Shown here: positions 416 through 59,658 of the stretch, piece by piece
How the letters are laid out: each line of letters starts with the position of its first letter
How positions within the stretch are numbered: the stretch's first letter is position 1
Assembly: GCA_023247055.1 (NCBI GenBank)
Contig: JAHFHF010000002.1
Location: 16,710-80,709, forward strand
From: Candidatus Omnitrophota bacterium
GTDB taxonomy: Bacteria; Omnitrophota; Omnitrophia; Omnitrophales; Aquincolibacteriaceae
Length of the DNA stretch: 64,000 bases
Direction of reading: 5' to 3'
Program-made: the position numbers and the translations under genes
Notes under the pieces: generated by a model
What the model was told of the DNA's origin: nothing
Databases searched by the model: none
The model's input: the letters and a program-made list of their open reading frames with translations, nothing else

Positions 416-462
416 CTGTTATCCCGCCTCAGCTTGGAAGCCAAGATACCAAACGGCGTAGC
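416..462. repeat. Diverged single copy of the 58-bp TGTCATTCCCGC repeat family
   Basis: ctgttatcccgcctcagcttggaagccaagatacc compared with tgtcattcccgcctctgcgtggaagccgagac at 21057. Confidence 0.4.
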
Positions 463-9180: not shown

Positions 9181-9483
<303 letters not shown>

Positions 9484-10039: not shown

Positions 10040-10093
10040 ACAGGTCTCCTGCTTTAATTGTACCCGGAAGCTTTAGCGGCGGGAATGAAAATT

Positions 10094-17482: not shown

Positions 17483-17583
17483 TTTGTCATTGCGAGGAGT
17501 CTCACCGCTTTTGGGTAGACGACGAAGCAATCTATTTAAGATGGCTTCACCCATCACAAAACTCGACGGTCCGCAATGACAAA
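17483..17583. repeat. TIR-type palindromic repeat (type 2: TTTGTCATTGCGAG ... CGCAATGACAAA)
   Basis: 13-bp terminal inverted repeats plus an internal cgaagcaatct hairpin core shared with the copies at 23128 and 27297. Confidence 0.6.
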
Positions 17584-18283: not shown

Positions 18284-19396
18284 TCAGCGCTGCCGTTCGA
18301 GGACGTAATCGAGCAGTTTCTCGAGGCTGTGCTTGGCGGGCGATGCGGGAAAAGGCTGAAGGGCCTGACGGGCCTCGGCGCTGAATTGCCGCGCTTTTTC
18401 AAACGCATAATCCAGGGTTTTAGCGCCGCGAATTTTTTCAAGCAGGGCTCGCAGCCGGCCGGCATCGCCGGATTCAAACACCGCCTGGATCTCCGCTCGC
18501 ACAGACGCCCCGGAGCAAGCCAGAAGACGGATGAGCGGCAGGGTCAAAACCCCTGCTTCGAGATCAGCGCCCAGCGTTTTGCCAAATTCATGCTCATTGC
18601 CGGTAAAATCCAGGCAGTCGTCGACAATCTGAAAAGCCATGCCGAAGGCATGGCCAAAACGGCTGAGCGCTGCCGCTTCCTCAGTGCTGCAGCCGGCATA
18701 ACGCGCGCCCGATTCAAGCGCACAGGCCAGAAGCACGGCTGTTTTCTTGCGGATAATTTCAAAATACTCTTCTTCGGTCAAACCGAAATTTTTATTTTGA
18801 CTCAACTCGTGAATTTCACCGTCGCAGACTTCTGCGGCAGTTTTCAAAAAAAGCGAAAAGACTTCGCGGCTTCCTTCCGTGTGGATAACTTCGAGCGCTT
18901 TATCGTGCAGATAATCCCCAACCAGCACTGCCGTCGGCGCACCCCATTTCACATTGATGGTGGGAATATTGCGGCGCAAATAAGCGGAATCGATAATGTC
19001 GTCATGGATCAGCGTTGCCGCGTGAAAGATTTCATAGGAAGCGGAAAGCCGGACCAAAGGCGGGAATGATATGCCGCCAACAGCGGCATAGACATCGCTG
19101 TCTTTGCCGCCGAGCAAAGGCGAGAATGACACACCGCCAACAGCGGCGTGTACATGACTGTCTTTGCCTCCGTGCAAAGGAGGATGAATTTGCGCGGAAT
19201 AAACCGGCTGTTTTAACGCTGCCCCCAAGAGCGTCAGGGCCGGACGCAGCAGCTTGCCTTTGCCTGAAAAAAAATACTGAATGACTTCGGACGCCAGCGC
19301 ATTGGACGTGCCCAAAACCTCAATCAGCGCGGCCGGAACCTTTTCAATCGAGGCTTCAATCGGAGCATAGATTTCTTCAAGAGTTATGGTTTGCAT
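18284..19396 (-). CDS. ispB: Polyprenyl (octaprenyl-type) diphosphate synthase carrying an in-frame repeat-derived 42-aa insert
   Basis: DDxxD motifs LIHDDIIDS and IVDDCLDF; start taken at the ATG at 19396 (MQTITLEE), which overlaps the fmdB stop (TAATG); the extra segment HGGKDSHVHAAVGGVSFSPL / LGGKDSDVYAAVGGISFPPL lies between the conserved LRPAL and IHxATLxHDD blocks. Confidence 0.8.
   Translation of the reverse strand: MQTITLEEIYAPIEASIEKVPAALIEVLGTSNALASEVIQYFFSGKGKLLRPALTLLGAALKQPVYSAQIHPPLHGGKDSHVHAAVGGVSFSPLLGGKDSDVYAAVGGISFPPLVRLSASYEIFHAATLIHDDIIDSAYLRRNIPTINVKWGAPTAVLVGDYLHDKALEVIHTEGSREVFSLFLKTAAEVCDGEIHELSQNKNFGLTEEEYFEIIRKKTAVLLACALESGARYAGCSTEEAAALSRFGHAFGMAFQIVDDCLDFTGNEHEFGKTLGADLEAGVLTLPLIRLLACSGASVRAEIQAVFESGDAGRLRALLEKIRGAKTLDYAFEKARQFSAEARQALQPFPASPAKHSLEKLLDYVLERQR
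19061..19190. repeat. Two tandem 63-bp copies of the TGTCATTCCCGC-family repeat lying in-frame within ispB
   Basis: Shares the core gaatgaca(c)(a/g)ccgccaacagcggc with the reverse complement of the intergenic 58-bp unit (21057, 29422). Confidence 0.65.
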
Positions 19397-21056: not shown

Positions 21057-21203
21057 TGTCATTCCCGCCTCTGCGTGGAAGCCGAGACGGTCATGCTCGC
21101 CGCTGTTGGCGGCGTGTCATTCCCGCCTCTGCGTGGAAGCCGAGACGGTCATGCTCGCCGCTGTTGGCGGCGTGTCATTCCCGCATGCTTTTGGCGGGAA
21201 TCA
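21057..21203. repeat. Type-1 repeat: two tandem 58-bp units plus a terminal hairpin (tgtcattcccgc-atgcttttg-gcgggaatc)
   Basis: Two exact 58-bp direct repeats starting TGTCATTCCCGCCTCTGCGTGGAAGCCGAGAC, then a 9-bp-stem hairpin and a T-tract. Confidence 0.8.
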
Positions 21204-21252
21204 GCGCTTTTTGACGTTCTCGAATGCCCTTGTCAAGGGCCCAGCAAGCCTG

Positions 21253-21310
21253 ATCCCCGACAAAGACATTCGGGGATGACATTGTGTGCGCGACCGCACA
21301 CACAATGTCA
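21253..21310 (-). terminator. Two stem-loops immediately after the mutL stop
   Basis: gacattgtgtgcg-cgac-cgcacacacaatgtc (13-bp stem) and atccccg-acaaagacatt-cggggat. Confidence 0.35.
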
Positions 21311-23110
21311 CTTTCGTTTAAACTGTCTTTCAAGATCTGAAAACGTCTGCTTAAAAAAAGTAGGCCGGCCGTGCGGACAATGAAACGGATTGTCGCAGAC
21401 AGCCAGGCGCACAATCAGCGATTTAAGTTTTTCCGGCGCCAGCGCATCATGCGCTTTGACGGATTTACGCTTACAGGCAAAAAGCGCGGCGATTTCTTCT
21501 TCATAATCCTCAAGCCGCGTTTTTGTTTTTTCGTCCTCTTTTTCTTCCAGAAAATGGCGCAGAACTTCGGCGGGCGCTTCGTCCTGAAGCACGGCCGGAT
21601 AAGCACGGACGACCACGGTATTTTCGCCGAATTCTTCAGCCTCAAAGCCCATTTTTTCCAAAAGCGGCTGGGCCGCGCGGAAAACCTCGAGCTGGCGCGG
21701 ATGCAGCGTCAGCACATCTTCCACCAAAAGCCCTTGTTTTTGGGCGCCGCCGGAGCGCATTTCTTTGAGCAGCGTCTCAAACATGATGCGCTCATGCGCG
21801 GCATGCTGGTCGACCATAATCAGTCCGTCCTCAGTCTCAGCCACAATAAACGTGTGGTGGATTTGGCCCAGAATCTTGGTGACGCGAAACTGATCACGGA
21901 TGGCGATGCCCGCAGGCGCTGAAACCGCTTCGCGCTCGGGCACTTGAAAAATACCGGGATCCGCCGTACGCACCACCGGCTCTGCGGTCATGAATGTTTC
22001 TTGCCGGTAGTCTGTTTTTGCCAGCGGCCTTTCGCCGGAGTCAGGAAACGGGGTACGCCGCGGCAGCGGATCAAGCGGCTCAGCCGCGTCTTTTTTGATT
22101 TTAAGCGTCGGCGCAAGGTCGCCGGATTGCTGAAGGGCCTGCGCTACGGCCTGGCTTAAAAGCGAACGTACTTCAGGTTCGTTCGAAATACGGACTTCCT
22201 GTTTGGTCGGATGCACATTGACGTCCACTTTGGCCGGATCCACCTCAATAAAAACAACGGCCACCGGATATTGACCGTGCATCAAGGCGCCGTGATAGCC
22301 CCCATGCAAGGCATAACTGAGAGACTGCGATTTGATCAGCCGGCGATTGACCAGCAGCACCTGTCCCGTGCGGTTGGATTTGGCCATGAAAGGCTTGCCG
22401 GTTACACCCCATACTTTGGCATGATGGCCTTCACCGCGGAACTCGATAAAATGCCCCGCCTGTTCGTCGCCATAAATCATCGCCGCCCGGGCGCGTAAAT
22501 CCTGCCCCGGCACGAGGTCCAAAAGCGTACGGCCGCCGGACTTCAGCATAAACCCAGCATCAGGCATGGCCAGTGCAATGTGCGCGACGGCATCGACGAT
22601 ATGGCCTAACTCCGTGGAGTCGCCTTTCATGAATTTGCGGCGGGCAGGCGTATTAAAAAATAAATCGCGGACTTCGATAATCGTGCCCTCGCGGCAGGGC
22701 GCTTCCCGCACCGAGGTCTTGTGACCTCCTTCGACTTTGACTTCCACTCCGGAAGCGCGGCCGCGGGCCCGCGTGGTCATGGTCGTACGCGAAACGGCTG
22801 AAATGCTGGCAAGGGCTTCTCCCCGGAATCCGTAAGAAGCAATCGCCTCCAGATCTTCCGCCGTAAAAATTTTGCTCGTAGCGTGACGTTGAAAAGCTAA
22901 TTCGGCATCCTGCGGGTCCATACCCGCGCCGTCATCGGCCACCCGGATCAGGCTTTTGCCGCCATGCTCGACTGTGATTTCCAGCGACCGGGCGCCGGCA
23001 TCCAGCGCATTTTCGATCAATTCTTTGACCACCGAAGCCGGCCGCTCAACCACTTCCCCGGCCGCAATTTTATTGGCAATAATTTCAGGCAGAACCTGGA
23101 TTTTTCCCAT
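21308..23110 (-). CDS. mutL: DNA mismatch repair protein MutL
   Basis: 600 aa; GHKL ATPase N-terminus ELIENALDAG...VADDGAGM and a C-terminal dimerisation domain. Confidence 0.95.
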   Translation of the reverse strand: MGKIQVLPEIIANKIAAGEVVERPASVVKELIENALDAGARSLEITVEHGGKSLIRVADDGAGMDPQDAELAFQRHATSKIFTAEDLEAIASYGFRGEALASISAVSRTTMTTRARGRASGVEVKVEGGHKTSVREAPCREGTIIEVRDLFFNTPARRKFMKGDSTELGHIVDAVAHIALAMPDAGFMLKSGGRTLLDLVPGQDLRARAAMIYGDEQAGHFIEFRGEGHHAKVWGVTGKPFMAKSNRTGQVLLVNRRLIKSQSLSYALHGGYHGALMHGQYPVAVVFIEVDPAKVDVNVHPTKQEVRISNEPEVRSLLSQAVAQALQQSGDLAPTLKIKKDAAEPLDPLPRRTPFPDSGERPLAKTDYRQETFMTAEPVVRTADPGIFQVPEREAVSAPAGIAIRDQFRVTKILGQIHHTFIVAETEDGLIMVDQHAAHERIMFETLLKEMRSGGAQKQGLLVEDVLTLHPRQLEVFRAAQPLLEKMGFEAEEFGENTVVVRAYPAVLQDEAPAEVLRHFLEEKEDEKTKTRLEDYEEEIAALFACKRKSVKAHDALAPEKLKSLIVRLAVCDNPFHCPHGRPTFFKQTFSDLERQFKRK

Positions 23111-23127
23111 AATTCCTCATTTTACCC

Positions 23128-23245
23128 TTTGTCATTGCGACCTGCAGTAGCAAGGCACGCTGCTTTTTAGCGGGCAACGAAGCAATCTGCTTTTAAAAAC
23201 GAGATTGCTTCGGCCTCAAATGGAACCCCGCCTCGCAATGACAAA
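23128..23245. repeat. Type-2 TIR repeat (TTTGTCATTGCGA ... TCGCAATGACAAA) with an internal 11-bp-stem palindrome
   Basis: Perfect 13-bp TIRs; internal cgaagcaatct-gcttttaaaaac-gagattgcttcg; fills the mutS-mutL intergenic gap. Confidence 0.75.
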
Positions 23246-23249
23246 TGAG

Positions 23250-25889
23250 TTATAATTTTTCTTTCCACTCAGCAATTTTATTGAGCGCCTGCAGCGGTGT
23301 CAGGCCGTCCAGGCTCAACGTGCGTAATTCATCAAGCAGCGGATGCTGTTTCGGAGCCGCATCAAAAAGACCCGGCTGGGGCGCTTCTTTTTTTGAGCGG
23401 CCTTTAGCGCTCTTGCCTTCGATAATCTGCGTAGCTTCCGTGTTTTCGCTCTCAAGAATCGCCAGAATTTTTTCAGCACGTTCAGTCACGGCCTTGGGAA
23501 TGCCCGCCAGGCGCGCGACGTGGATGCCGTAGCTGCGATCGGATCCGCCGCGCACCACTTTGCGCAAAAAAACAATGCCATCCCGCGTTTCGCGCACAGT
23601 GATATTATAATTTTTGATGCCCGGAAAATGTTCTTCAAGCTGAGTCAATTCGTGATAGTGCGTGGCAAAAAGCGTACGCGGCCGCACAGGGCCGCCGGCC
23701 AGAAATTCGCAAATGGCCCAGGCAATACTGACGCCGTCAAAGGTGGACGTACCGCGCCCGACCTCATCCAGAATCAGCAGGCTTTGCGTCGTGGCTTTCT
23801 GCAGAATGTGTGCCGTCTCAACCATCTCGACCATAAAGGTGCTTTCGCCGCGCGCCAAATCGTCAGAAGCGCCGATGCGCGTAAAAATACGGTCCACCAA
23901 ACCCGCGCGTACGCGGCGGGCCGGCACGTAAGAACCGATCTGGGCCAGCAGCACAATCAACGCGGTTTGACGGATGTAGGTGGATTTACCAGCCATGTTC
24001 GGGCCGGTCAGGACCGCAAGCTGGTTTTCGGCGGTGTCCAGATGCACGTCGTTTTCCACAAACTGGCCGGCCGGCAGCATCATTTCAACCACGGGGTGGC
24101 GTCCGGCTTCAATCACTAACTCTCCCGAAACAGCAATCTCAGGCGCCACCCATTTGCGCTGCAGCGCTGTGAGCGCCAGCGCAGCGAGGCTGTCCAAAAT
24201 CCCAATGGCGCGCGCCATGGTCTGAAGCGGCTCAAGCGACGACAAAATGCTCGCGCGGATTTGATTAAAAATCTCATACTCAAGCGCTTTGACCTTGTCC
24301 TCAGCCCCGGAGATTTTTTCATCCCAAGTTTTAAGTTCAGGCACGATAAAACGCTCGGCATTGGCCAGCGTCTGGCGGCGAATGTAATCCGGCGGCACCA
24401 GATGTGAGTTGGCAGTGCTGATTTCAATGGTATAGCCGAAAACTTGCGAATACTTCATGCGCAGGGACTTAATGCCGGTTCGTTCGATTTCGCGCTTTTG
24501 AAATTCGAGAATCCAGTTTTTACCGTTGCGCGCAATTTCGCGCATTTCATCGAGTTCTTTAGAATACCCGTCCCGGATCATACCGCCCTCGCGCACGGAA
24601 AGAGGCGGCGTTTCAACAATAGCCCGCTCGATTTCATTTTTAAGTTCAGGAAATACGCGGATCAGACTGGCTGATTTTTTCAAAATCACGCTTTGGACCG
24701 GCGCGAGCAGCTGCAGAATTTCCGGCACGCGGGCAAGAAAAATCTGCAGATTGACCAGGTCGCGTGCATTGGCCACGCCGTAGTTCAAACGGCTAAGCGT
24801 GCGTTCCACATCTTTGACGCCTTTGAAGAGGCCGCGCAGCGTATTGAGCCATTCGGGTTTGTGCGCCAACTCACCGACCCCGGCCTGGCGCGCCCGGATT
24901 TCTTCGGCGCCGAGCAAGGGATGCGTCACCCATTGATAGAGCGTGCGCGTTCCCATGGAGGTCAGGGTCTGATCCAGCGTCGAAAGCAGGGTCGGTCCTT
25001 GCTTGTCGCTTAAAGAACTTACGAGTTCCAGACTGCGCTGGGTCTGGCGGTCGAGCACCATAAATTCATGGGCTTCCATCAAAGACGGCAGCTGCAGATG
25101 ATCGAGCGCCGTATGCAGATGATCACGCAAGTAATAGAGAATCGCACCGCAGGCACTCACCGCCGCCGAACGGTCATGAAAACTCAGGCTTTGGCGCGAG
25201 GCCAGCTTGAATTTTTCCTGAATGAGGCGCAGGCAGTCGGCGGATTCAAAAACCCAGTCTTCATAGACCGTGACCGTGGCCTTGAGGCCGTCTTTTAAAA
25301 AACACGTCAGGGCTTCGTCTTTTTCCAAGCTTTTGGCGGCAATCACTTCGCGCGGCGCAAGCAGCGCCAGTTCGCCGCACAGGCGCTCCTGCGGCACTTC
25401 GCGCACGCAAAACTCGCCGGTGCTCAATTCGAGGTAAGCGACGGCCCATTGGCCGGCCGAACCGCGGGCCAGCGCGCACATATATTCAAACGCTTTGGAA
25501 CGGGTTTCATCCTCGAGATAGGTTGCGGGAGAAACAATGCGCGTGATCTTGCGTTCCACCAGCCCCTTGCCGGGCGTAACCTCGCCCACCTGTTCGCAGA
25601 TGGCCACTTTGAAATTGTGGTCGATCAATGTCCGGATATAGCCCTGCGAGGAGTGGTAAGGAATGCCGCACATGGGTACGCGGCCCGCCTCGCCGCCTTC
25701 ACGTCCGGTCAAGGTAATATCCAGAAGTTCAGAGGCTTTGAGTGCGTCTTCAAAGAACATTTCATAAAAATCCCCCAGCCGGAAAAAAAGAATGGTTTGA
25801 GAGGGCAGGGATTTCTTAATGGAGCGGTACTGCTCCATCATGGGAGTCAATTTGGGTTCAGCCGGAGATGTAAGGGATGTCGTCAGCAT
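23250..25889 (-). CDS. mutS: DNA mismatch repair protein MutS
   Basis: 879 aa; Walker A GPNMAGKST; N-terminal mismatch-binding FYEMF motif. Confidence 0.96.
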   Translation of the reverse strand: MLTTSLTSPAEPKLTPMMEQYRSIKKSLPSQTILFFRLGDFYEMFFEDALKASELLDITLTGREGGEAGRVPMCGIPYHSSQGYIRTLIDHNFKVAICEQVGEVTPGKGLVERKITRIVSPATYLEDETRSKAFEYMCALARGSAGQWAVAYLELSTGEFCVREVPQERLCGELALLAPREVIAAKSLEKDEALTCFLKDGLKATVTVYEDWVFESADCLRLIQEKFKLASRQSLSFHDRSAAVSACGAILYYLRDHLHTALDHLQLPSLMEAHEFMVLDRQTQRSLELVSSLSDKQGPTLLSTLDQTLTSMGTRTLYQWVTHPLLGAEEIRARQAGVGELAHKPEWLNTLRGLFKGVKDVERTLSRLNYGVANARDLVNLQIFLARVPEILQLLAPVQSVILKKSASLIRVFPELKNEIERAIVETPPLSVREGGMIRDGYSKELDEMREIARNGKNWILEFQKREIERTGIKSLRMKYSQVFGYTIEISTANSHLVPPDYIRRQTLANAERFIVPELKTWDEKISGAEDKVKALEYEIFNQIRASILSSLEPLQTMARAIGILDSLAALALTALQRKWVAPEIAVSGELVIEAGRHPVVEMMLPAGQFVENDVHLDTAENQLAVLTGPNMAGKSTYIRQTALIVLLAQIGSYVPARRVRAGLVDRIFTRIGASDDLARGESTFMVEMVETAHILQKATTQSLLILDEVGRGTSTFDGVSIAWAICEFLAGGPVRPRTLFATHYHELTQLEEHFPGIKNYNITVRETRDGIVFLRKVVRGGSDRSYGIHVARLAGIPKAVTERAEKILAILESENTEATQIIEGKSAKGRSKKEAPQPGLFDAAPKQHPLLDELRTLSLDGLTPLQALNKIAEWKEKL

Positions 25890-29403: not shown

Positions 29404-29568
29404 TGTCATTCGATGACGCTGTGTCATTCCCGCCTCTGCGTGGAAGCCGAGACTGTCATGCGCAGCGCTGTTGGCGCTGTGTCATTCCCGCCTCTGCGTG
29501 GAAGCCGAGACTGTCATGCGCAGCGCTGTTGGCGCTGTGTCATTCCCGCAAGTTTTTGGCGGGAATCT
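29404..29568. repeat. Type-1 repeat: a partial unit, two 58-bp units, and a terminal hairpin that overlaps the mfd stop
   Basis: Units start at 29422 and 29480; hairpin tgtcattcccgc-aagtttttg-gcgggaatc at 29538-29568. Confidence 0.8.
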
Positions 29569-31474
29569 TAGGAACTTTGTCCCCTTGCTCTTCCTGAACT
29601 GCCTGGCGCAGCATGCGGCAATAGAGATCAAAACCGACCGCATGAATAAAGCCGCTTTGTTCATGGCCCAGAATATTGCCTGCCCCGCGGATTTCCAGAT
29701 CTTCCATGGCAATTTTGAAACCCGACCCAAGCTCGGTAAAACGTTCGATCGCCGCTAGACGCTTTTCAGCATCCCGCGTCAAAACCCAGTTTTTAGGCAC
29801 CAGAAAATACGCATAGGCCTGGCGCTTCTCGCGGAAGCGCCCGACGCGGCCGCGCAGCTGGTAAAGATCGGCCAGACCAAAGGCGTCCGCGCGGTTGACA
29901 AAGATCGTATTGACGTTAGGAATGTCGAGTCCCGACTCAATGATGTTGGTCGACAAAAGACAGTCGAGTTTTTGTTCCATAAAAGCTTTCATCACGGCCT
30001 CGAGTTCCTGCGGATCCATTTGGCCGTGCGCCACGCCAAAGCGCACATCCGGCATGAGTTTTACAAGCTGAGCATGGATTTTTTCGATGGAAGCCACGCG
30101 GTTATGCACAAAATAACATTGGCCGCCCCGTTCAAATTCGCGGCGCATGCCCTGCACGATCCGCTGGTCGCTGTATTCAAGCACATACGTTTCGACCGCA
30201 AGGCGGTTCTTCGGCGGTGTATTGATCACCGACATGTCGCGCACACCCATCAAGGACAAATAAAGCGTGCGCGGAATCGGCGTGGCAGTCAGCGTCAACA
30301 CGTCCACCACGGCACGGTATTTTTTTAATTTTTCTTTATGCCGTACGCCAAAGCGCTGCTCTTCGTCAATCACGACCAGGCCAAGATCTTTAAACTGGAC
30401 ATCTTTGGAAAGCAAACGGTGCGTGCCGATCAAAATATCAACGGCCCCTTCACGGGCCGCGCGCATGATGCCCAGCTGTTCCCTGCGCCCGCGAAAACGC
30501 GACAAGACTTCCACGGTCACAGGGAAAGTGCGCAGCCGCTGTTTTAGAACCAGGTAATGCTGCTCCGCCAGCACGGTGGTAGGCACTAAAATCGCCACTT
30601 GCCTGCCGCCTGTCACCGCTTTAAACGCCGCGCGCATGGCCACCTCGGTTTTACCGTAGCCCACATCGCCGCAAAGCAGGCGGTCCATGGGTTTCGCCGA
30701 TTCCATGTCCGCTTTGACTTCGCTAATGGCCGTCGCTTGGTCCGGCGTTTCTTCAAAAGGAAACTCCGCTTCAAATTGGCTTTGCCACTCTTGGTCTTTG
30801 GGAAAAGCAAAGCCCTTTTCAACGCTGCGCTTTGCCTGCACTTCGAGCAGATCGCGCGCGACCGATACCACGGCCCGGCGCGTGCGTTCCTTGACGCGCT
30901 GCCAATCTTTCGTATGAATGCGGGTCAGTTTCGGGGCGTACCCCTCGCCGCCGATATAGCGCTCGAGCGGCTCATGCATGTCAAAGTACAAGATTTCACG
31001 GTCCGCATATTCCACGGCCAGATGCCGTTTGCGCTGGCCTTTGATTTGAATGGTCTTGGTACCCAGAAAACGGCCAATCCCGTATTCCAAATGCACGACA
31101 TAATCGCCCGCCTTCAAATCGGTGCTGTCGCTGAGCGATTCAAAGGCTTCGAATTTTTCGCGCAGGCGCGAAATTTTTTTACGGAAGGGGTCTGTGACGG
31201 GAAGGATAAAAACTTCTTCGAAAACCGTATAAACTTGGCCGTCGACGGGAGAAAAATCCCGGATTGAGACCAGACGATCGGCCTCAAATTCCAGCCGCAC
31301 CGGCGAGCGGTAGGTCACGGGGTAAATATCCAGAGTCGCGCCGCGCAGGCTAAACTCACCCGGATGCGCCACAAAATCTTTTTTTTCGTAATGCAGATTG
31401 AAAACAAAATCCTCAAGGGCTGCGCGGGGAAAAGAGTCGCCGACTTTTAAAACTTTGGGGGAATGGGAGTTCAT
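29540..31474 (-). CDS. mfd: Transcription-repair coupling factor, short form (RNAP-interacting domain D4 plus the D5/D6 translocase core; no D1a/D2 N-terminal region and no D7)
   Basis: 644 aa; RID-like [11 protein letters not shown]...; helicase motifs [26 protein letters not shown] and QLRGRVGR; the last 10 codons ([10 protein letters not shown]) are read from the repeat hairpin. Confidence 0.78.
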
Positions 31475-36168: not shown

Positions 36169-36199
36169 TGTCATTCCCGCATGCTTTTGGCGGGAATCT
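36169..36199. repeat. Isolated type-1 terminal hairpin (tgtcattcccgc-atgcttttg-gcgggaatc) followed by a T-tract
   Basis: Identical to the hairpin that ends the arrays at 21173 and 59563. Confidence 0.7.
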
Positions 36200-36298
36200 G
36201 CGTTTTTTGTTGTTTCTAAATTTCTTTGTCAAAAACTTAACTTGCCCGATCCTCGACTAAAGCATTCGAGGATGACCAGACACATCAGCGTCGTCTGG

Positions 36299-59504: not shown

Positions 59505-59628
59505 TATCATTCTCGCCTCGGCATGGAAGCCGAGACTATCATGCTCAGCGCTGTTTGCTCCGTGTCATTCCCGCATGCTTTAGGCGGGAATCTAACTCGC
59601 TAGATCCCCGCCAAAAACATGCGGGGAT
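59505..59628. repeat. Degenerate type-1 unit, the terminal hairpin, and an inverted related hairpin, in the rplL-rpoB spacer
   Basis: tatcattctcgcctcggcatggaagccgagactatcatgc...; hairpin 59563-59592; second hairpin atccccgc-caaaaacat-gcggggat at 59603-59628. Confidence 0.65.
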
Positions 59629-59658
59629 AACCATCAAACTACTACCGCAATTTGATGG

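Follow-up and report, generated by a model that had tools for sequence, protein, structure and literature searches.

Hairpin-capped tandem repeats in an Omnitrophota genome are probably Ssn-related motifs and gene-less derivatives

Two identical 58-bp units stand head-to-tail in the mutL-radC spacer of this Omnitrophota contig and run directly into a hairpin. Comparable arrangements recur elsewhere in the window, by which we mean the whole 64-kb stretch of DNA that was analysed. What kind of element are these repeats, and how could they have multiplied? The first-pass annotation described an interspersed, hairpin-forming family distinct from CRISPR. Both points held, as alignment and nhmmer place diverged copies at at least five loci of the window and the units are contiguous, head-to-tail and without spacers. 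The flanking genes were likewise named correctly: RadC, MutL, a SurA-like protein and Mfd were confirmed, and rpmJ, infA, rplL and rpoB can be read from the translations. The intergenic 58-bp units are located as follows.

21057..21172, plus strand: two identical 58-bp units (TRF; ssDNA fold z = -6.4; nhmmer E = 9e-18 each)
29404..29421, plus strand: partial unit or mini-hairpin GTCAT-TCG-ATGAC before the second array (read and folded)
29422..29537, plus strand: two identical 58-bp units, hairpin 2 being CAGCGC-TGTTG-GCGCTG, a compensatory change (TRF, alignment, nhmmer)
59505..59562, plus strand: single degenerate 58-bp unit, 47/58, with a perfect hairpin 1, CTCGGC-ATGGAA-GCCGAG (nhmmer E = 2e-15)
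422..446, plus strand: weak partial unit upstream of efp, hairpin-1 part only (nhmmer E = 0.002; 38/61 in a global alignment)

TRF reports a period of 58 bp with 100% matches for both arrays (2.2 copies at 21057-21184, 2.3 copies at 29417-29549), the copy number of identical units being taken from one metagenome assembly. The units are identical within an array and agree at 52/58 positions (90%) between the first and the second. The exact 58-mer that had been assigned to both arrays is thus found in the array at 21057 but not at 29422, where 6/58 positions differ. Similarly, the degenerate single unit at 59505 was confirmed, but the one proposed at 416-462 shrinks to the weak partial unit at 422-446. 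The 58-bp unit was not found in the other hairpin loci. Neither a translated search of the protein collection with its three-frame peptide nor a literature search for the spurious peptide 'PAFAGMT' returned anything.

The unit at 21057 consists of TGTCATTCCCGC, hairpin 1, GGTCATGCT and hairpin 2 (CGCCGC-TGTTG-GCGGCG) in this order, whereby hairpin 1 is CTCTGC-N6-GCCGAG or, alternatively, TTCCCGC-CTCT-GCGtGGAA. Each unit is composed of two diverged GTCAT-prefixed hairpins, 32 and 26 nt apart, and TRF finds a sub-period of 26 nt. Hence an array represents a same-direction series of five GTCAT+hairpin modules. Changes in the second stem are compensatory between the arrays (CGCCGC/GCGGCG vs CAGCGC/GCGCTG), as are those in the first stem between units (CTCGGC/GCCGAG vs CTTTGC/GCAAAG). 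Moreover, the element regions fold as ssDNA far better than shuffled sequences (z = -6.4, -4.7 and -5.0).

Each 58-bp array is followed by a cap hairpin with the layout TGTCATTCCCGC-N9-GCGGGAATC and a loop of 9 nt. Allowing at most one mismatch, TGTCATTCCCGC occurs 12 times in the window compared to 0.44 expected. The pattern ATTCCCGC-N9-GCGGGAAT is present exactly at 21177, 29542, 36173 and 59567 and as a variant at 59604, with 0.11 expected, and all four caps read (T)GTCATTCCCGC-N9-GCGGGAATC. Two further stretches, 25326-25345 inside mutS and 553-564 at the efp start, were treated as chance matches; the partner arm is absent there. On the minus strand at 10079-10090, between a GGDEF/EAL-type gene and a response regulator, TTTCATTCCCGCC may be a decayed solo left arm, a convincing partner arm not being seen.

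The caps closely resemble a described motif. In many bacteria, small single-domain GIY-YIG genes (ssn) are flanked by SRMs (Ssn-related motifs), a group that includes the NTS of Neisseria (CGTCATTCCCGCGMAVGCGGGAATCYRG) with its dRS3 sequence (Chenal et al. 2025, PMC11893778). SRMs share a GTC(A/T)(C/T) 5' flank, an imperfect palindrome and a C after the palindrome, and were surveyed in RefSeq representative genomes, mainly of Pseudomonadati (PMC11893778). The 94-aa nuclease SsnA binds to this hairpin and, in ssDNA only, cleaves a few nt to its 5' side; for cleavage, the GTC in front of the palindrome is important, and for binding it is above all the C behind the palindrome (PMC11893778). In the window, GTCATTCCCGC and GCGGGAATC agree with the NTS consensus CGTCATTCCCGCG-MAV-GCGGGAATCYRG at 20/20 arm and flank positions, including the GTC and the C. 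Sharing arms and flanks with the NTS, the cap is probably an SRM. By the published string, HGTCWYN(0-2)YYVSBRHN(0-5)WNVSBRGN(0-2)RNCYNB, only 36169-36201 matches (1 match vs 0.19 in simulations), and the other three caps miss it solely at the final YNB positions. Judged from their sequence, the window repeats are real and probably the Omnitrophota version of the SRM, a known kind of element (NTS/dRS3 family), with some features that appear to be undescribed: the long loop, the doublets, the outer-flank arrays and the in-frame coding insertion. The four hairpins are listed here.

21173..21203, plus strand: cap SRM hairpin TGTCATTCCCGC-ATGCTTTTG-GCGGGAATC (exact pattern match; stem 8/8 paired; arms and flanks as in the NTS consensus)
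29538..29568, plus strand: cap SRM hairpin without inverted partner (exact pattern match, hairpin scan; the minus strand is the mfd 3' end)
36169..36199, plus strand: SRM hairpin 16 nt upstream of the rpmJ start (exact pattern match)
59563..59592, plus strand: cap SRM hairpin between rplL and rpoB (exact pattern match, hairpin scan)

The annotated succession of array and hairpin was recovered at 21173-21203, 29538-29568 and 59563-59592, all three being exact pattern matches. The hairpin at 36169, described as standing alone, turned out to be paired: the hairpin scan finds an inverted partner downstream at 36249-36276. The same scan gives the caps at 21173, 36169 and 59563 each a minus-strand inverted partner 12-51 nt downstream and the cap at 29538 none, so that the window holds three doublets and one solo hairpin.

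21252..21281, minus strand: partner hairpin GTC-ATCCCCGA-ATGTCTTTG-TCGGGGAT-C, which together with the cap forms the gene-less doublet 21173-21281 (hairpin scan)
36248..36277, minus strand: partner hairpin GTC-ATCCTCGA-ATGCTTTAG-TCGAGGAT-C, whose stem carries a compensatory change (hairpin scan)
59603..59632, minus strand: partner hairpin GTT-ATCCCCGC-ATGTTTTTG-GCGGGGAT-C (variant pattern match, hairpin scan)
21278..21311, no strand assigned: extra palindrome GACATTGTGTG...CACACAATGTC, which abuts the doublet and overlaps the mutL stop codon (sequence reading, fold, hairpin scan)

The stems of the partners read ATCCCCGA, ATCCTCGA and ATCCCCGC. On their own strand, the partners start with GTC or GTT, carry the loop ATGYTTTWG and end with AT-C; hence the window doublets are inverted with their GTCAT ends pointing outward. 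The doublets 21173-21280 and 36169-36276 share 77% identity (family D2). TGTCAT...ATGACA termini are present at the elements. A MITE would have terminal inverted repeats together with a target-site duplication of fixed length, and no consistent duplication is visible in an unsystematic look at the listed flanks.

The window also contains two copies of another repeat family bounded by GTCAT, with the pattern TGTCATTGCGA ... GACGAAGCAATC ... (T)C(C)GCAATGACA, one after the ORF ending at 17557 (17485-17581) and one between mutS and mutL (23130-23243). Its GTCATTGCGAG motif is also visible in the flanks of two of the loci from other genomes (L043, L049), and the family may be another SRM-like type. 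As a separate feature, the window carries at 9181-9483 on the minus strand an initiator-like tRNA(CAU) gene (CGCGGGG...GGGCTCAT / AACCC...CCCCGCTACCA) with a group I intron in the anticodon loop (Rfam RF00028, 58 bits, 9252-9459); the tRNA is not called by ARAGORN.

The family had been regarded as confined to spacers, which proved too narrow. Related units are located in frame inside a gene.

19064..19183, minus strand: two 60-bp units within a polyprenyl diphosphate synthase gene, whose reading frame they keep (nhmmer E = 6e-14 and 2e-13)

TRF reports 60 bp x2.1 at 19055-19180. The two units are 82% identical to each other and ~75% identical to the 58-bp unit. Their host ORF, 18284-19396 on the minus strand, encodes a polyprenyl synthase (Pfam PF00348) of 370 aa, which is on record for the 134,796-bp NCBI contig that includes the window. 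The units account for residues 72-111 (40 aa), and all orthologues of the synthase, from 74% identity downward, have 329-334 aa and do not possess these residues. The insert lies in a variable loop ahead of the first DDxxD motif and is predicted as a low-confidence coil (AlphaFold; a weak model with a mean pLDDT of 65). A period of 60 bp preserves the reading frame, while 58 bp would break it. At the junction, the native codons PPLVRL (VPLVRL in the sister) are similar to the unit start CGCCTTTG..., a weak hint of a microhomology-assisted event.

A further overlap concerns mfd. The cap at 29538-29568 covers the last nine mfd codons and the stop (minus strand: IPAKNLRE, TGA). Thus, the claim that overlapping ORFs are translations of the repeat is true of the short ORFs but not of the mfd end at 29538-29568, and because the cap overlaps genuine 3' codons and the stop, not every overlapping ORF is spurious. 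Mfd (29540-31474, minus strand) is a short form of 644 aa with UvrB-interaction, RID and helicase domains and without the C-terminal TRCF domain. Its closest relatives have 640 and 642 aa and end ~8-16 residues past the GFDLYCR motif, and the Mfd of the sister L146 has 636 aa. Since these share the short form, it is a lineage trait and not repeat damage. A truncation of mfd by the element was accordingly rejected, the hairpin supplying the last few codons only.

The first-pass annotation had also proposed a comparison of sister loci and a search for further copies, and both gave a result. Two sisters (L146 and L147) show the gene order mfd-surA-pdxA-ksgA-mutS-mutL-radC-...-ispB, which is syntenic with the window. 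Their mfd-surA and mutL-radC spacers are element-free with 89-90 bp; instead, a doublet is located between mutS and mutL. In the closer sister L148, the orthologous mutL-radC spacer contains two diverged, oppositely oriented units (nhmmer E = 2e-6 and 2e-5), and the L148 contig ends inside the array. Based on these three sisters, the 58-bp family is lineage-restricted but real, and the occupancy of spacers shifts between relatives. A degenerate unit pattern scanned against metagenomes matched twice, in both cases by chance and inside coding sequence; this pattern was too strict and missed the diverged copy in L148, which was found with nhmmer. An independent Logan contig of the same organism (L121, SRR14366787) corresponds to 21252-24812 of the window with 100% identity over 3.5 kb and stops exactly at 21252, the inner edge of the partner hairpin and thus inside the doublet. 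This shows that the repeats break assemblies, and it backs the sequence up to 21252 but not the unit copy number. In practice, such repeats fragment metagenome assemblies and yield spurious ORFs.

The hairpin itself is spread much more widely. Scanning one genome per species turns up at least 120 stretches with the exact 29-nt pattern. They belong to at least 94 assemblies and at least ~18 phylum-level groups, among them Nitrospirota, Bacteroidota, Ignavibacteriota, Omnitrophota, Chloroflexota, deltaproteobacteria and Planctomycetota. In IMG/VR, 22 stretches carry the exact hairpin. One predicted viral contig of 31.9 kb (IMGVR_UViG_3300028840_006884; loci L126, L131 and L136) has eight exact copies. 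In ~40% of the matches listed, an inverted partner follows 7-68 nt downstream, most commonly TGG-ATGCCCGA-N9-TCGGGCAT-GACA. Among 40 partners picked by their outer anchors only, stem position 3 is G-C in 22, T-A in 7, C-G in 4 and A-T in 3. This covariation, together with that in the window units, suggests that the hairpin stems are under selection on structure.

Which protein could act on the hairpin? No GIY-YIG gene is found within the 64-kb window. When the ORFs beside 144 hairpins in 120 loci were compared, a small GIY-YIG ORF of 89-97 aa was the sole real protein family recurring in at least four loci: L002 and L028 from Omnitrophota and L111, L120 and, partially, L041 from Ignavibacteria. 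These ORFs have a single domain (Pfam PF01541, E ~1e-17). NCBIfam has no model specific to them, and their putative assignment to Ssn was made via PF01541, the size and the hairpin flanks. For an Ssn protein, membership in CDD cd10448 (GIY-YIG_unchar_3) and homology to the 94-aa SsnA of N. meningitidis would be expected. In L028, L111 and L002 the ORF is located exactly between a GTCAT hairpin and an inverted ...ATGACA hairpin. The reverse approach, starting from the protein, leads to the same picture: GTCAT hairpins lie within ~60 nt on both sides in 4/4 loci (L149, L150, L153 and L154), derived from Omnitrophota (CP070780.1), Doudnabacteria, Campylobacterota and Bacteroidales, with stems that are lineage-specific. 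Given these hairpin-GIY-YIG-hairpin cassettes in other genomes, the window doublets are best read as the gene-less form of the cassette.

The small GIY-YIG protein has 6186 homologues, and the best 120 of these 6186 are 67-100% identical across phyla, which suggests frequent horizontal transfer and a multi-copy status of the genes. These best 120 (P0271-P0390) stem from Omnitrophota, Campylobacterota, Planctomycetota, Bacteroidales, Poribacteria and CPR Doudnabacteria, and many are encoded on contigs of <2 kb.

Tandem growth next to the hairpin is seen elsewhere, too. Half-site tandem repeats of 22-27 bp, consisting of a hairpin arm and ~12 nt, occur on the outer GTCAT side in seven loci from several phyla (L044, L065, L087, L111, L112, L115 and L154) and also in the viral loci L135 and L144; in L111 they are arranged symmetrically on both sides of the GIY-YIG gene. 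Arrays of hairpin plus spacer with 66-209 bp occupy the outer flank in L112, L083, L055 and L126. In the main text of PMC11893778, a term search returned neither tandem repeats nor MITE-like derivatives, and 'array' and 'coding' are not used there in a relevant sense. The gene-less doublets, the tandem arrays of the outer flank and the in-frame coding insertion therefore appear to be undescribed in that paper.

Taken together, we consider it likely that the cap hairpin is an SRM and that the copies in the window are gene-less derivatives acted on by Ssn. The autonomous form would be hairpin, ssn and inverted hairpin, an order seen in other genomes, and the window would contain non-autonomous derivatives only, i.e. 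three gene-less inverted doublets and one solo hairpin. We infer that these serve as substrates of an Ssn encoded elsewhere in the genome, on the assumption that an ssn gene of the source genome, present or former, acts on them. Lineage-specific modules of 58-60 bp, each composed of two diverged GTCAT+hairpin units, would occupy the outer (GTCAT) side. Locally, the units may have multiplied through tandem duplications arising between one repeated 12-nt left arm and the next, which would explain why copies are identical within and different between arrays. The outcome would be a small mosaic array comparable to the NIMEs of Neisseria, with elements presumably gained and lost at different spacers among sister genomes. 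Inside a gene, a period that is a multiple of three and a tolerant loop site could have allowed the units to persist.

A further-reaching version is possible but on balance doubtful. According to it, the hairpin-ssn-hairpin cassette would be a true autonomous mobile element with a GIY-YIG ssDNA nuclease, moving between phyla. The doublets would be MITE-like, the outer-flank arrays, including the 58-bp units, would be footprints of copying, and the same process would build peptide segments in essential genes. Arrays could then be made, for example, by nicking on the 5' side of the hairpin and subsequent re-priming or a switch of template among alternative left arms.

Alternatively, the repeats could act at the level of RNA, as stabilising or attenuating stem-loops or as small RNAs in operons, with selection on structure only. 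The copies do lie in co-directional gene strings (mutL-radC, mfd-surA, infA-rpmJ and rplL-rpoB) in which they would be co-transcribed, and they fold strongly (z = -4.7 to -6.4). However, no Rfam family reaches threshold in the whole window (gathering cut-off), permissive E-values on two elements give sub-threshold generic hairpins only, and no terminator-like site is found within the elements at either array. The exact conservation of 20 nt with asymmetric flanks in ~18 phyla, along with a nuclease gene, points to recognition of DNA by a protein and not to generic RNA structure. We therefore hold an exclusive RNA function to be unlikely; an RNA role could nevertheless coexist with the action of Ssn.

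A link of the hairpins to integrases or prophage junctions, as proposed for the NIME arrays in Neisseria (PMC1797815), would fit the 22 IMG/VR stretches and the viral contig of 31.9 kb with its eight copies. Yet no recombinase family recurs beside the hairpins and no phage genes are seen around the window copies, which makes this link quite improbable.

We give slightly less credit still to the idea that these are elements of the REP/REPIN type, disseminated by a RAYT (a Y1 HUH transposase akin to the TnpA of IS200/IS605). Inverted doublets of imperfect palindromes resemble REPINs, the elements are mostly intergenic, and a complete doublet is able to fold into a single long hairpin (below threshold, generic Rfam long-hairpin models match 59561-59634). 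Against this, tblastn finds no IS200-like TnpA in the window or the retrieved loci, although distant RAYTs could be missed with the query used, and no ORF with an HUH-Y motif lies within 400 bp of the 144 hairpins. The unbiased clustering of neighbouring ORFs yields the GIY-YIG family only. Moreover, REP sequences are normally lineage-specific, in contrast to the window hairpin, which is identical across phyla.

Least credible of all is an assembly artefact or a trivial local duplication without wider meaning: the source is a metagenome-assembled contig with units 100% identical within each array, and an independent assembly breaks exactly inside the doublet, but diverged copies with compensatory changes at at least five window loci, a diverged in-frame pair inside an intact gene and units at the orthologous spacer in a contig from another sample (L148) speak against it.

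If the assignment to the SRM holds, a puzzling repeat of an uncultured phylum would become part of a family with a known protein partner and testable biochemistry. The SRM family would be extended to many phyla that the RefSeq-based survey sampled sparsely, and the doublets, the recurrent outer-flank arrays and the 40-aa synthase insert would provide material on the mobility of the Ssn cassette and on array growth.

Compared to the NTS of Neisseria, the window hairpin has identical arms and flanks and differs by its loop of 9 nt instead of ~4. SsnA still cuts a stem rebuilt from two loop-less half oligos (PMC11893778), hence the longer loop need not matter. Like NTS and other SRMs, the elements of the window form hairpins, are multi-copy and are mostly intergenic. 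In contrast to the SRMs of PMC11893778, their host is an Omnitrophota MAG and the ssn gene is absent from the 64-kb window. Like REP, BIME and REPIN elements, they consist of palindromes arranged as inverted doublets, occur in mosaic clusters and are probably linked to ssDNA; they differ in that the associated protein is a GIY-YIG nuclease instead of a RAYT and that the hairpin is conserved across phyla. In NIMEs, the palindrome ATTCCC...GGGAAT (dRS3) alternates with lineage-specific RS segments of 19-214 bp (PMC1797815). Both NIMEs and the window repeats are mosaic arrays that vary between related genomes. The spacing differs, being ATTCCC-N8-GGGAAT in dRS3 and N13 in the window; the window arrays are short (2 units), and their internal units hold the left arm or a degenerate TTCCCGC-CTCT-GCGtGGAA hairpin only instead of a full palindrome on both sides. 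Finally, the coding insertion recalls the Rickettsia palindromic elements (RPE), short palindromic repeats that can sit in frame in protein-coding genes and add a peptide segment. RPEs are single insertions of ~100-150 bp with a sequence unrelated to the window units, whereas the insert here comprises two 60-bp units in tandem and affects a single gene, that of the synthase.
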